IMG/VR virus record: IMGVR_UViG_2547132278_000009
DNA from: a virus
Taxonomy: Duplodnaviria > Heunggongvirae > Uroviricota > Caudoviricetes
Strand: one strand, 5' to 3'
DNA: 40,040 nucleotides
Both the position numbers and the translations under genes were made by a program. Below the pieces are notes generated by a model. The model was not told the DNA's origin and ran no database searches. It was given only the letters and a program-made list of their open reading frames with translations. Position 1 is the stretch's first letter. Each line of letters begins with the position of its first letter. This document shows, one piece after another, positions 29,960 through 40,040 of this stretch.

Positions 29960-30271
29960 TCAGGCTATTGCCATCACTGATGCTCTCTGAATCTCTTGCT
30001 GGGCCACGCGGTTAACTTCCATCAAAGCCAGTTCGAGCTGATGTTCCGGCCACATTCTTTGAAATGCCACCCAGCCTTTTCCACGCTGGCGACGAACATT
30101 CATTACATAACGAGTAAAGGTGTTTTTATCGAAAGACACCGCTGTTTCACGGAACAGACGAATAGAGGTTCCATTGGCAACGATGTCCAGCAAAGTTAAT
30201 TGAGCAACCAGCGCAGGCTTCTCTTTTCTCTTCTGGTCTTTGTCCAGACCAAGAACCAATGATTTTTTCAT
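29960..30271 (-). CDS. Hypothetical basic protein (103 aa), possible DNA-binding protein
   Basis: ORF 29960..30301; start MKKSLVLG at 30271 with GGAG RBS; K/R-rich. Confidence 0.5.
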   Translation of the reverse strand: MKKSLVLGLDKDQKRKEKPALVAQLTLLDIVANGTSIRLFRETAVSFDKNTFTRYVMNVRRQRGKGWVAFQRMWPEHQLELALMEVNRVAQQEIQRASVMAIA

Positions 30272-34087: not shown

Positions 34088-36121
34088 TTACTTAACCTGA
34101 TGGCCTGGTTTAGCACCGGCATCCGGGCTTAACAGGAAGATATCTTTCCCGCCGGGGCCAGCAGCCATCACCATGCCTTCAGAGATACCGAAGCGCATTT
34201 TACGCGGAGCCAGGTTAGCCACCATAATGGTGTGACGACCAATCAGTGCCTGTGGATCTGGATAAGCGGAACGGATGCCTGAGAAGACATTACGCTTTTC
34301 ACCACCGAGATCCAGCGTCAGGCGCAGCAGTTTGTCAGAACCTTCGACAAACTCCGCGTTTTCAATCAGCGCCACACGCAGGTCAACTTTGGCGAAGTCG
34401 TCAAAGGTGATGGTTTCCTGAATCGGGTCGTCAGCCAGTGGGCCAGTTACCGGTGCAGCTGTGGCTTTCACTTCTTCTTTGGATGCTTCCACCAGTGCTT
34501 CCACCTGTTTCATATCGATACGGTTATACAGTGCCTTGAACGGATTCACTTTATGGCCCAGCAGCGGTTGCTGGATACCATCCCAGGTCAGTTCTGTATT
34601 CAGGAATGCTTCTGCACGTTCAGTCAGTTTCGGCAGTACCGGTTTCAGGTACGTCATCAGCACGCGGAACAGGTTAATGCCCATAGAGCAAATCGCCTGC
34701 AGATCGGCATCGCGTCCTTCCTGCTTCGCCACCACCCACGGAGCCTGTTCATCGACATAGCGGTTAGCCAGATCAGCCAGCGCCATGATTTCACGAATCG
34801 CTTTACCAAATTCGCGGCTTTCCCATGCTTCACCAATCACTTCAGCGGCATCAGTAAAGGTTTTGTACAGTTGCGGGTCAGCCAGTTCGCCTGCCAGCAC
34901 ACCGTCAAAACGCTTATTGATAAAGCCCGCGTTACGGGACGCCAGATTCACCACTTTGTTCACGATATCGGCATTCACGCGCTGAACGAAATCCTCCAGG
35001 TTGAGATCGATATCATCAATGCGCGAAGAGAGTTTCGCAGTGTAGTAGTAACGCAGGCTGTCAGCGTCAAAATGATTCAGCCAGGTGCTGGCTTTAATAA
35101 AGGTGCCGCGAGACTTGGACATCTTCGCACCGTTCACCGTCACATAGCCATGAACAAACAGGTTGGTCGGCTTGCGGAAGTTGCTGCCTTCCAGCATGGC
35201 AGGCCAGAACAGGCTGTGGAAGTAAACGATATCTTTACCGATGAAGTGGTACAGCTCGGCGGTGGAGTCTTTCTTCCAGTATTCGTCGAAGCTGGTAGTG
35301 TCGCCGCGTTTGTCGCACAGATTCTTGAAGGAACCCATGTAGCCAATCGGTGCGTCCAGCCAGACGTAGAAATATTTGCCCGGTGCGTTCGGAATTTCAA
35401 AACCGAAGTACGGCGCATCGCGGGAGATATCCCACTGTTGCAGGCCAGATTCAAACCACTCCTGCATTTTGTTTGCCACCTGCTCCTGCAACGCACCGCT
35501 GCGGGTCCATGCCTGCAACATTTCGCTGAAAGAGGGCAGATCAAAGAAGAAGTGTTCGGAATCACGCATTACCGGCGTAGCACCAGAAACTACCGATTTC
35601 GGCTCGATCAGTTCAGTCGGGCTGTAAGTCGCGCCGCAGACTTCACAGTTATCGCCGTATTGATCTGGCGCTTTACATTTAGGACAGGTGCCTTTTACAA
35701 AACGGTCCGGCAGGAACATGCCTTTTTCCGGGTCGTACAACTGAGAGATAGTGCGGTTTTTAATAAAACCGTTCTCTTTCAGGCGAGTATAGATAAGCTC
35801 AGACAACTGACGGTTCTCTTCGCTGTGCGTCGAGTGATAGTTGTCATAGCTGATGTTAAAGCCTGCGAAATCAGTCTGATGTTCCTGACTCATTTCGCCA
35901 ATCATCTGCTCCGGTGTGATACCAAGCTGCTGTGCTTTCAGCATGATCGGCGTACCGTGGGCATCGTCGGCACAGATGAAATTAACCTCGTGGCCGCGCA
36001 TTCGCTGGTAACGAACCCAGACATCAGCCTGGATGTGCTCCAGCATATGGCCGAGGTGGATTGAGCCGTTAGCGTACGGCAGCGCGCACGTCACCAGAAT
36101 TTTCTTCGCGACTTGGGTCAT
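34088..36121 (-). CDS. metG: Methionyl-tRNA synthetase
   Basis: Near-identity to E. coli MetG as I recall it (start [36 protein letters not shown] motif present); ORF-track N-terminal extension discarded. Confidence 0.97.
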
Positions 36122-36278: not shown

Positions 36279-37379
36279 ATGAGCGAGTCCAAATCGCCGG
36301 ATGCCCTGAGAGCAATGGTAGCCGGTACGCTGGCTAATTTTCAGCACCCAACCCTGAAACACAACCTGACTACGCTTAAAGCGTTACACCATGTTGCGTT
36401 GATGGATGACACACTGCATGTCGAACTAATCATGCCTTTCGTGTGGAATAAGCCTTTTGAAGACCTGAAAGAGCAATGTAGTGGTGATCTGCTCCGTATC
36501 ACTGGCGCAAAGGCTATTGACTGGAAGCTGTCGTACAACATTGCCACGCTTAAGCGTGTCAAAAACCAACCAGGCATTAATGGCGTTAAGAACATTATCG
36601 CCGTCAGCTCAGGCAAGGGCGGCGTGGGTAAATCCTCCACGGCGGTAAACCTGGCACTGGCGTTGGCTGCTGAAGGTGCGAAAGTTGGTATTTTGGATGC
36701 CGATATCTATGGTCCATCAATTCCAACCATGCTGGGCGCGGAAAACCAACGTCCAACCTCACCTGACGGTACTCACATGGCACCTATCATGTCTCATGGC
36801 CTGGCAACCAACTCTATTGGTTATCTGGTCACCGACGACAATGCAATGGTGTGGCGTGGACCGATGGCCAGCAAGGCGCTGATGCAGATGTTGCAGGAAA
36901 CTCTATGGCCTGATCTGGACTATCTTGTTCTCGATATGCCGCCGGGCACTGGTGATATTCAGTTGACGCTGGCGCAGAACATTCCTGTAACTGGTGCTGT
37001 TGTGGTAACTACGCCGCAAGACATCGCGCTGATCGATGCGAAGAAAGGCATTGTGATGTTCGAAAAAGTCGAAGTGCCGGTACTGGGTATCGTCGAAAAC
37101 ATGAGTGTGCATATTTGCAGTAACTGCGGTCATCACGAGCCAATTTTCGGCACCGGTGGCGCAGAGAAACTGGCCGAGAAATACAACACGCAGTTGTTAG
37201 GCCAAATGCCACTTCATATCTCACTTCGTGAAGATCTGGATAACGGAACACCAACCGTTATTAGTCGTCCAGATAGCGAATTTACGGCTATTTATCGTGA
37301 CCTCGCAGATCGCGTTGCTGCCCAAATGTATTGGCAAGGTGAAGTAATACCTGGCGAAATCGCATTCCGCGCAGTGTGA
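36279..37379 (+). CDS. mrp: Mrp/ApbC iron-sulfur cluster carrier ATPase
   Basis: Near-identity to E. coli Mrp as I recall it (P-loop SGKGGVGKSS, CSNCGHHE motif); divergent from metG. Confidence 0.95.
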   Translation: MSESKSPDALRAMVAGTLANFQHPTLKHNLTTLKALHHVALMDDTLHVELIMPFVWNKPFEDLKEQCSGDLLRITGAKAIDWKLSYNIATLKRVKNQPGINGVKNIIAVSSGKGGVGKSSTAVNLALALAAEGAKVGILDADIYGPSIPTMLGAENQRPTSPDGTHMAPIMSHGLATNSIGYLVTDDNAMVWRGPMASKALMQMLQETLWPDLDYLVLDMPPGTGDIQLTLAQNIPVTGAVVVTTPQDIALIDAKKGIVMFEKVEVPVLGIVENMSVHICSNCGHHEPIFGTGGAEKLAEKYNTQLLGQMPLHISLREDLDNGTPTVISRPDSEFTAIYRDLADRVAAQMYWQGEVIPGEIAFRAV

Positions 37380-37383
37380 TAAA

Positions 37384-37405
37384 AAGGCGGTGCATTGCAC
37401 CGCCT
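37384..37405. terminator. Bidirectional terminator between mrp and the UmuD-like gene
   Basis: AGGCGGTGCA-TT-GCACCGCCT stem-loop flanked by A/T runs. Confidence 0.6.
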
Positions 37406-37416
37406 AATCAGTTCTC

Positions 37417-37806
37417 CTACATCACGGGACAATCATCAAACTCGCCACTTCTTGCGTCGTTGATAATGTGAGTGATCACACCAAACACGGCATTGCTGCC
37501 CGTGCATCCATCGTCATCCTTTGGCAATGCTTCCTTCTTACCGGTTCTTAAATCCTCCAGATGCTGACGTGGATACTTCCGGTATCTTTTTACGCGATAT
37601 TCCCCATCCAGAGCGCATACAAGCAGAGAACCATCAACCGGGGTAAGTGAGGAATCGACCACCAGCAATGCACCCTGTAATATTCCCTCACGATGATGAC
37701 TATCAGCTGCCCTCATGAAGTAGGTCGCTGAAGGATGTCTAATTATCTGCTGATCAAGAGAAATACGGCTCTCAGCATAATCCGCCGCAGGAGAAGGGAA
37801 GCCCAT
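37417..37806 (-). CDS. UmuD-like S24 peptidase-family protein, without an adjacent umuC
   Basis: 129 aa; GFPSPAADY..., HPSATYF and GVITH match E. coli UmuD; Ser and Lys of the S24 dyad appear present (DSH..., VKR). Confidence 0.8.
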   Translation of the reverse strand: MGFPSPAADYAESRISLDQQIIRHPSATYFMRAADSHHREGILQGALLVVDSSLTPVDGSLLVCALDGEYRVKRYRKYPRQHLEDLRTGKKEALPKDDDGCTGSNAVFGVITHIINDARSGEFDDCPVM

Positions 37807-37822
37807 AATACTCGCCTCTTAA

Positions 37823-37842
37823 TACTGTATACACATACAGTA
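37823..37842. promoter_or_regulatory. LexA (SOS) box
   Basis: TACTGTATACACATACAGTA, i.e. CTGT-N8-ACAG, 17 bp upstream of the UmuD-like start codon. Confidence 0.85.
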
Positions 37843-38140
37843 TATATTGAAGCTATATATTTTTGAACTCTATCTCTTAAAAAAGATGTTAATAAGATGC
37901 TAACTATTGAAAGGCATAAATATATACAATTCAAACAAACGTTATTTTTAACAAATTTTTTCTTCCCATTGACTTTTTCGAACGCCTTGTCCGGTCTAAA
38001 GTGCGCAGAAGTCACTTTTTCCTTCCTGAGTTATCCACAGGCTTATGCACTTGCATGAAAAATCTATTCACACTATCTTAATTCGCAAGACACTGATGTT
38101 GCAGTATTGAGGGTATGTTGGGTTAAAAATAGACATTAAA

Positions 38141-38170
38141 AAGCCCAGTTGACTAGGCTGGGCTTTTTAA
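38141..38170. terminator. Bidirectional rho-independent terminator
   Basis: AAAAAGCCCAG-TTGACTAG-GCTGGGCTTTTT. Confidence 0.65.
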
Positions 38171-38468
38171 AAGGAAACAGAGTTTGCGGCTCTGTTCCTG
38201 AGCCATAAGTATCTGGCGACTGAATTAAGATTAACCGAATGTACTGGATTCATCAAGAAACGTTGAGTGGTCATACTAGGTAATAATGACCATTTACTAA
38301 ACATCGTTGTTCTCAAAGAAGATTTAAGTCCAGGTTTTTGGTGACTCTAAAACCTTACCTTAACTCGAAATCGTGCCGTAAGTATCTGGCGACTACAGAT
38401 ATTGCAACTGCAAAGGCAAGCCCAAAGGTATTTGCAGCTAGGCGCGATAAAACTAAGTGAGGCCTGTT

Positions 38469-38552
38469 ATGGTTAACTTACTGTTCAAAATCGTGCCGCC
38501 GATGTTCGCGATTATCAAAGCGATCATTGAGTACGTAAACCAGCGTCCATAA
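38469..38552 (+). CDS. Possible small hydrophobic peptide (27 aa)
   Basis: MVNLLFKIVPPMFAIIKAIIEYVNQRP with GTGAGG RBS upstream and a stem-loop (GGCCCCAT-N7-ATGGGGCC) downstream. Confidence 0.3.
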   Translation: MVNLLFKIVPPMFAIIKAIIEYVNQRP

Positions 38553-38607
38553 CGCTAGTTGCTACAGGCCCCATCAAGAGCATGGGGCCTCTTTATCGTA
38601 CTATTGC

Positions 38608-39234: not shown

Positions 39235-39614
39235 TTATCTCTCTCAGTATGTTGCGATGGCGTAAATTTGACGACATCAAATATTTTGGATGGCATCAAC
39301 TTTATCCGCGAGCTTAGTTCGGCTCTTCTCTGTAATGCGGTTAATAATGTTTTCGTTCTGACGCCTTCGTGTATCCTCATCCCTGGCACAAGAACTACAT
39401 CGCAGGGGAGATGCTCAGGTGACAAATCATTTTGGGCATCGCTAATCAGTCGTGTAATCTCTCTTTCAAGCCGACCGCCTAGCTCTGTTTTAGTGCAATG
39501 TTCTGACCAATCGCCAGCCTCAAGCAGCGCGAGAATGCTTAAAATATCGTCCAATAGATCAGTGGTATTATCGACTTCCTTCTGAAACTCACCGGCTACT
39601 GATTTATGCATCAT
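39231..39614 (-). CDS. Hypothetical protein (127 aa)
   Basis: ORF translationally coupled to the 208-aa gene. Confidence 0.45.
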   Translation of the reverse strand: MMHKSVAGEFQKEVDNTTDLLDDILSILALLEAGDWSEHCTKTELGGRLEREITRLISDAQNDLSPEHLPCDVVLVPGMRIHEGVRTKTLLTALQRRAELSSRIKLMPSKIFDVVKFTPSQHTERDK

Positions 39615-39894
39615 TCGTCATCCTCATCCGAGTCATCCTCATCACAGGATGAGAGTAGTGGGTTAGTCATTCGCCCTACTTGAGTGGCGTAGCCACGCCG
39701 ACAGAGATTGCGCAGCACACTGTATATTTCGAACATCTCGGTTCGTTCATCGCCAACATCAAGCTCAGATGCTATAGCGTGGCATTCAGTCGCGAGAGCC
39801 GATATTTTCGTAAGCGTAAAGCCAATGCCGTCTGTAACACCTGCTCCTTGCAGACTAAATTAGAGCTCCTTCTAAATTAGACGGAGTTCTATTG

Positions 39895-40040
39895 ATGGAT
39901 AAACCTACAGACTGGCGCTCCGGAACCCGCCGGATATTTTCTAATGAATTTAAACTTCATATGGTTGAACTGGCTTCGAAACCAAATGCCAATGTTGCAC
40001 AACTGGCCCGGGAACATGGCGTTGATAACAACCTGATTTT
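39895..40040 (+). CDS. IS3-family transposase OrfA-like HTH protein, N-terminal part (partial, continues off-window)
   Basis: MDKPTDWRSGTRRIFSNEFKLHMVELASKPNANVAQLAREHGVDNNLIF fits the IS3-family OrfA pattern (R-x-FS-x-EFK ... VAQLARE.GV..N.L). Confidence 0.65.
   Translation, partial: MDKPTDWRSGTRRIFSNEFKLHMVELASKPNANVAQLAREHGVDNNLI

Follow-up and report, generated by a model that had tools for sequence, protein, structure and literature searches.

The UmuD-like protein encoded in the 40,040-nt viral stretch analyzed here (hereafter, the window) is, judged by its sequence, HumD, the phage P1-type “homologue of umuD”. The gene is thus already named and known, and so is the kind of element that carries it, an SSU5-like phage-plasmid. 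By analogy with P1, humD very probably provides an SOS-induced, pre-activated UmuD′ analogue that pairs with the UmuC of the host, and is carried as a single-gene SOS cassette. An earlier note had described a 129-aa UmuD homolog, preceded by a canonical LexA box and followed by a terminator and mrp rather than by a umuC-like polymerase gene, and had proposed either a stand-alone, self-cleaving SOS sensor or a modulator of host Pol V. The description of the locus was borne out by our analysis, and the gene proved to be characterized in reference genomes, as humD of P1 and under its RefSeq name on near-identical plasmids. Since the gene is a P1-type humD on an SSU5-like phage-plasmid, the absence of umuC is its expected state and not an anomaly.

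We compared the protein with family models, phage proteins, and solved structures. Against the NCBIfam equivalog NF051876, “HumD family translesion DNA polymerase”, it scored 219.8 bits (cutoff 120) over positions 1–129 of 129. Its score against the UmuD subfamily model was below the cutoff (87 vs 110), and the LexA model reached 27 bits (cutoff 111), aligning residues 4–78 only, onto the C-terminal part of LexA. The protein also belongs to Peptidase_S24 (PF00717, 1.6e-09) and matches PHROG 811, “UmuD-like” (2.7e-54). It is 91.5–92.2% identical to the HumD of phage P1 records, and likewise to that of P7 and SJ46, 100% identical to a Cyrano protein, and 64–71% identical to N15 gp26, phiKO2 gp23, and the homologues of HK140 and HK639. 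An identical protein, WP_000506720.1, occurs on numerous E. coli plasmids about 110 kb in size and bears the RefSeq label “HumD family translesion DNA polymerase” or “S24 family peptidase”. Among solved structures the best match was UmuD′ (PDB 1umu, E 6.7e-23, residues 2–118). An AlphaFold2 model built on a family alignment of 101 sequences was poor (mean pLDDT 49, pTM 0.41) and added nothing to the sequence match with UmuD′ as structural evidence.

Aligned with UmuD, the protein starts where UmuD′ starts: its Gly2 falls on residue 1 of UmuD′ in 1umu and on Gly25 of UmuD in 8gmt, and all 129 residues fall within the S24 domain. The UmuD-type Cys/Ala-Gly scissile bond is missing, as HumD begins at the Gly of that bond, and the LexA/CI-type layout of an N-terminal DNA-binding domain followed by a cleavable linker is missing as well. 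An in-frame TAA lies four codons 5′ of the humD ATG, and an in-frame stop precedes the ATG by two to four codons in 77 of 80 related loci. This TAA rules out an upstream extension of the reading frame to a UmuD-like arm; a tblastn alignment of UmuD that reaches into the upstream DNA crosses the same stop and is not meaningful. Because HumD starts at the Gly25 equivalent and is preceded by a stop codon, it has no cleavage site, N-terminal arm, or DNA-binding domain. With neither a scissile bond nor a DNA-binding domain, it should be neither self-cleaving nor a repressor, and the suggestion of a self-cleaving, SOS-sensing regulator does not hold. Rather, HumD is made in the already “cleaved” UmuD′ form, in which cleavage is not needed.

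The gene is a monocistronic unit that combines a LexA box with an S24 domain of UmuD′ length (Table 1). To locate LexA-type sites, we scanned the window with the E. coli LexA-box consensus, allowing up to three mismatches, and compared the outcome with 100 dinucleotide-preserving shuffles. The box upstream of humD, TACTGTATACACATACAGTA, differs from the 20-mer consensus TACTGTATATATATACAGTA at two positions; it was the sole site within three mismatches in the 40-kb window, and the shuffled sequences contained none. Its distance to the ATG is 16 nt, so that the earlier note was right about where the box lies and off by one at most in placing it 17 bp upstream. The predicted −10 hexamer of humD overlaps the box. 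This promoter is a pattern match only, and the total of promoter-like sites in the region does not exceed the shuffle expectation. Downstream, the terminator-like hairpin and its T-run, at 37405–37385 on the minus strand, begin 11 nt past the stop codon. CTGT-N8-ACAG occurs just once more in the window, at 30142–30157 (CTGTTTCACGGAACAG). This copy was rejected as an SOS box: its spacer is GC-rich, it lies more than three mismatches from the LexA consensus, and it is probably a chance match.

Table 1 Features at the humD locus, in window coordinates
Feature	Position	Strand	Details
humD CDS	37417–37806	−	ATG start, 129 aa, coordinates include the stop codon; pre-truncated UmuD′ analogue (by homology)
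Shine-Dalgarno-like AGAGG	37815–37819	−	8 nt 5′ of the humD ATG; read from the sequence
LexA (SOS) box TACTGTATACACATACAGTA	37823–37842	.	Near-consensus 20-mer
Sigma-70-like promoter	37839–37867	−	TTCAAA (37867–37862), 17-nt spacer, TATACT (37844–37839); consensus scan
Intrinsic-terminator-like hairpin	37376–37405	−	9 bp, 7 GC, with T-run; between the convergent humD and apbC
apbC (mrp)	36279–37379	+	Pfam ParA/NUBPL, 2.3e-102; convergent with humD

No polymerase partner was detected. A tblastn search with E. coli UmuC found no homolog in the 40-kb window (best E 7.4) and none on pSTEC409_1 (best E 0.9), a complete plasmid that is 99.9% identical to the window over the humD locus and has no Y-family polymerase among its annotations. 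We then considered 80 IMG/VR loci, defined as those encoding a protein at least 91% identical to the HumD of the window. None of the 80 had a UmuC match within 4 kb. A CTGT-N8-ACAG box was a constant companion, located 36–39 nt 5′ of the ATG in 80 of 80 loci. The half-sites of these boxes were invariant and the spacers variable, giving 17 different full sequences; invariant half-sites across so many versions of the box point to selection on LexA binding. The box is also kept 5′ of the N15, phiKO2, HK140, and HK639 homologues. Taken with its position at the putative promoter, the box leads us to infer that humD is regulated by LexA as part of the SOS response.

The coding sequence is likewise conserved. 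Between the humD genes of the window and of P1 we estimated a dN of 0.042 and a dS of 0.77 (dN/dS about 0.055); humD is under strong purifying selection and is no relic. About 100 homologues, with identities as low as 67%, share a length of 126–130 aa and the start MGFPSPA.

The replicon itself is readily placed. The first 25 kb of the window hold tail, head, and terminase genes, and the whole window is 94–98% identical to the SSU5-like phage-plasmids CMS-2020a, PhiR41_1, and Cyrano, the last of which is pLF82 of E. coli LF82 (PMC9928086). The structural genes are about 81% identical to those of Salmonella phage SSU5, and megablast with SSU5 gave no match to the humD/metG-apbC part. The locus is not a chromosomal metG-mrp locus; the window comes from an SSU5-like phage-plasmid of E. 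coli, of the Cyrano/CMS-2020a type. Here metG (34088–36121, minus strand) and apbC are divergent, and humD is their immediate neighbor. The pair is about 90% identical to its E. coli chromosomal counterpart and 95–99% identical on 215 records, consistent with 221 plasmid matches, and is a captured copy residing on the phage-plasmid. Tam et al. 2024 (cited through PMC12452169) connect the metG of phage-plasmids with the antimicrobial survival of Shigella.

The closest characterized relative of the gene is P1 humD (P1_gp103; McLenigan et al. 1999, J Bacteriol 181:7005; NF051876). The two proteins share a length of 129 aa, 92% identity, the same UmuD′ N-terminus start, the same AADSHH motif, and the tail SGEFDDCPV(M/I), and neither gene has a umuC partner. 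The LexA box occupies the same position, 19 nt from the ATG in P1 and 16 nt in the window. The surroundings differ. In P1 the divergent lxr shares the box and phd-doc comes after humD, whereas the window lacks lxr. The window instead has the terminator and the captured apbC-metG downstream and, upstream, AT-rich non-coding DNA that holds a candidate small-RNA/peptide module, all on a backbone that is SSU5-like and not P1-like. We looked for P1 lxr or dinI divergent from the LexA box of the window and found neither. DNA similarity to P1 at humD spans exactly positions 37852–37418 of the window, that is, the LexA box, the ribosome-binding site, and the coding sequence. Homology restricted to these three elements fits a small, mobile SOS cassette moving between phage-plasmid backbones.

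A few further observations concern the DNA around the cassette. The only other similarity to P1 on the 5′ side of humD is a 105-nt stretch (37956–38058), 76% identical to the upfO region of P1. It is no intact ORF here, and the P1 annotators liken upfO to an E. coli DnaA-box region; a perfect DnaA-box nonamer, TTATCCACA, is located within the stretch at 38031–38039. Near the end of the window, the start of an IS transposase OrfA (39896–40040; Pfam HTH_Tnp_1, 3.6e-08) runs off the sequence. It is preceded by a small ORF (39611–39736) of 41 aa, the counterpart of which in pEC332_01 has 73 aa. At the point corresponding to 39896–40040, related plasmids continue with an array of Ea22-like genes. 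Since the array continues in the relatives and the 41-aa ORF is shorter than its counterpart, an IS insertion near the end of the window is likely. Complete relatives of the phage-plasmid, such as L085 (NZ_CP041423.1, 7887–15454 and the rest of the plasmid), have genes of their own for RecA, DnaE (Pol III alpha), NrdAB, thymidylate synthase, DNA ligase, RNase HI, DfrA51, and several tRNAs, and are without UmuC.

The AT-rich non-coding gap 5′ of humD contains, at 38135–38600, a candidate module that resembles a type I toxin-antitoxin system. On the minus strand, positions 38135–38216 gave a sub-threshold match to the full Rfam AgrB model (RF02891; 27.6 bits vs a gathering score of 40), and the AgrB-like RNA has a terminator hairpin at its end. 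The two copies of a 20-nt direct repeat (38202–38221 and 38375–38394; 19 of 20 positions identical) make the 5′ end of this RNA complementary to a plus-strand RNA about 75 nt 5′ of a 27-aa hydrophobic ORF. This ORF (38469–38552), MVNLLFKIVPPMFAIIKAIIEYVNQRP, has its own terminator at 38566–38590. In L021, the most divergent relative, it differs by six synonymous and two amino-acid changes and by an ATG to GTG replacement; in L055 it carries three changes, and both copies of the direct repeat are invariant. Searches of Pfam and NCBIfam gave no match to the 27-aa ORF or to a 53-aa upstream ORF, and the module is without RefSeq annotation. Its layout resembles that of agrB/dinQ, an SOS-linked pair.

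The organization seen in the window recurs in other phages. N15 gp26, phiKO2 gp23, and the HK140 and HK639 proteins, which come from temperate phages and linear plasmid prophages, have 127–129 aa and start with (M/V)GFPSPA. Like the gene of the window, each has a LexA box upstream, the same C-terminal tail, and no umuC. Downstream of the umuD-like gene they have a terminator, partition genes, an integrase, or unrelated genes. In phiKO2 and HK140 the box is common to a divergent dinI, unlike in the window. E. coli UmuD and UmuD′ (Pol V accessory subunit; PDB 1umu, 1i4v, 8gmt) share with HumD the S24 fold family, the sequence GFPSPAADY, and the equivalents of Ser60 and Lys97. Compared with UmuD, the HumD of the window has no 24-residue N-terminal arm, no Cys24-Gly25 cleavage site, and no umuC operon; SGDSM is replaced by A-ADSH, four residues are inserted near residue 100, and the protein ends in a conserved extra tail of about 10 residues.

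The unusual active-site motif pointed out in the earlier note is real: where UmuD has SGDSM, HumD reads AADSH, with one residue deleted. The Ser60 and Lys97 equivalents are nevertheless kept in the window, as S36 and K73. Across 104 close family members, the position of Ser60 is occupied by Ser (57%), Thr (41%), or Ala (2%) and follows two highly variable residues; conservation at the Lys97 equivalent is 98%. Among the more distant N15, phiKO2, HK140, and HK639 proteins, Thr occupies the Ser position in all four, and Lys is changed to Met in HK639. To follow the dyad across the wider family, we performed an exhaustive HMMER search, which recovered 3416 homologues at E ≤ 0.001. We then compared cluster representatives at 50% identity, using the 91 with a complete C-domain among the best 150 listed. 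They included 31 proteins starting with MGFPSP, which we termed pre-truncated, and 55 proteins, termed armed, in which the N-terminal arm spans 15 residues or more. Within this set of the best 150 representatives, both Ser and Lys were present in 1 of 31 pre-truncated proteins vs 40 of 55 armed ones, and the sole pre-truncated cluster retaining both was that of the window itself.

This pattern suggests that proteolysis is dispensable in the pre-truncated lineage. Given the mixture of Ser and Thr in close relatives and the loss of the dyad in 30 of 31 pre-truncated representatives, catalysis does not seem to be under selection there, and such a loss is expected because HumD needs no activation. 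AADSH would accordingly be one instance of active-site relaxation across the pre-truncated family. The clade of the window keeps both Ser and Lys, and it is conceivable, if doubtful, that its HumD cleaves host UmuD in trans within HumD/UmuD heterodimers.

The C-terminal tail, …NDARSGEFDDCPVM, has no counterpart in UmuD and is the most conserved stretch of the HumD family: across 104 sequences E122 and D124 never vary, while conservation is 92–99% at F123, D125, C126, P127, and V128. Tail-like ends also occur in pre-truncated homologues of 40–52% identity, with the sequences …EFDDVPVM, …EFDDTPF, …FEFHDNLPF, and …EWDDLPVI. Among the best 150 representatives listed, a [DE]FDDxPxx tail was present in at least 9 of 31 pre-truncated proteins vs 0 of 55 armed ones. 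By eye, the tail resembles the C-terminus of E. coli SSB, …MDFDDDIPF, in a different register: the proline is at −3 and not −2, and the C-terminal residue is M or I and not F. One could imagine, though we consider it rather unlikely as a whole, that the pre-truncated lineage gave up proteolysis, that many of its members gained in return a short acidic-aromatic tail with the consensus [DE]-F-D-D-x-P-[VF]-[MI] (with variants such as …EFDDTPF and …FHDNLPF), and that this SSB-like tail could dock on, or compete with SSB for, the clients of the SSB tail at stalled forks, a role beyond that in Pol V. The family-level points, namely that the Ser/Lys dyad is mostly lost and that a C-terminal tail like EFDDCPVM is present in many pre-truncated homologues, may be new.

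The function that we favor follows from P1. In undamaged cells, host LexA would repress humD; upon DNA damage, LexA would be cleaved and HumD made. By extension from the P1 protein, HumD would dimerize like UmuD′ and form, with host UmuC, RecA, and ATP, a Pol V-like translesion polymerase, skipping the slow RecA-mediated step that activates UmuD to UmuD′. Damaged DNA of the phage-plasmid or of the host could then be replicated, at the cost of mutagenesis. The earlier suggestion of an action on host Pol V agrees with what has been described for P1 HumD, which, according to PMC7092418, stands in for UmuD′ alongside the UmuC of the host in SOS mutagenesis. P1 humD was non-essential by CRISPRi (PMC10695390). 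In its RefSeq record, P1 HumD is annotated as “functionally complements E. coli UmuD′”, and the homologous box is entered there as the site at which LexA binds to control lxr and humD. The P1 protein reportedly restores mutagenesis in recA430 strains, which are otherwise non-mutable, and is said to form dimers and to bind UmuC and RecA filaments. It is also said to be poorly expressed, with good complementation only from a high-copy plasmid; such poor expression implies that its natural role may not be bulk mutagenesis. That the HumD of the window can itself substitute for UmuD′ is extrapolated from its 92% identity to the P1 protein, and the Pol V model leaves the EFDDCPVM tail unexplained.

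That tail is the basis for considering a different job for the protein. HumD might be a UmuD′-shaped adaptor whose principal task is not translesion synthesis, and whose …GEFDDCPVM end docks on another replication or repair protein, such as a protein that partners the C-terminal tail of SSB, RecA filaments, or the alpha, beta, or epsilon subunits of Pol III. During the SOS response it would then divert replication or recombination of the host to the advantage of the phage-plasmid, with complementation of UmuD′ as a side activity. UmuD and UmuD′ are themselves known to contact the alpha, beta, and epsilon subunits of Pol III. Such an adaptor would account for a tail that is the best-conserved stretch of the protein, recurs at 40–52% identity, is found in none of the 55 armed proteins among the best 150 representatives listed, and looks like the …MDFDDDIPF end of E. 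coli SSB, and it would suit an element whose complete relatives carry their own RecA and DnaE. However, the likeness to SSB was seen by eye only and its register differs, the tail could equally stabilize the dimer or a contact with UmuC, replacing the missing N-terminal arm, and the complementation of UmuD′ and binding of UmuC reported for P1 HumD fit the simpler model. We therefore regard the adaptor as improbable.

Two other explanations were weighed. Membership in Peptidase_S24 and the retention of S36 and K73 could suggest a stand-alone sensor or regulator of the SOS response that cleaves itself under RecA stimulation, like LexA or the CI-type repressors. Such a protein would require a scissile bond and an N-terminal DNA-binding domain, yet nothing lies N-terminal to the UmuD cleavage position, with an in-frame stop four codons upstream, and, among the best 150 representatives listed, the dyad persists in 40 of 55 full-length UmuD-like proteins but in just 1 of the 31 pre-truncated ones; we find this explanation barely credible. 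Equally far-fetched is a decaying umuDC remnant from which umuC and the 5′ part of umuD have disappeared. The absence of umuC and of the UmuD N-terminus would be explained by decay, but a dN/dS of 0.055 against P1 humD at a dS of 0.77, and the constant length and MGFPSPA start in about 100 homologues, argue otherwise. The gene moreover has its own conserved LexA box, ribosome-binding site, and terminator, and a umuC relic was present in none of the contexts examined. A pre-activated partner of host UmuC thus remains the explanation that we prefer.

These results indicate that SSU5-like phage-plasmids of E. coli and Shigella carry what would be an SOS-inducible, pre-activated Pol V cofactor. 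HumD could raise damage-induced mutagenesis in its hosts, for example under quinolone treatment, and the same elements are reported to spread an extra metG. More generally, a LexA-boxed umuD-like gene without umuC would be the hallmark of a phage humD, and not of a lost operon or a new SOS sensor. The loss of the catalytic dyad, together with the gain of the tail, offers a testable hypothesis on a role that HumD may have beyond mimicking UmuD′.
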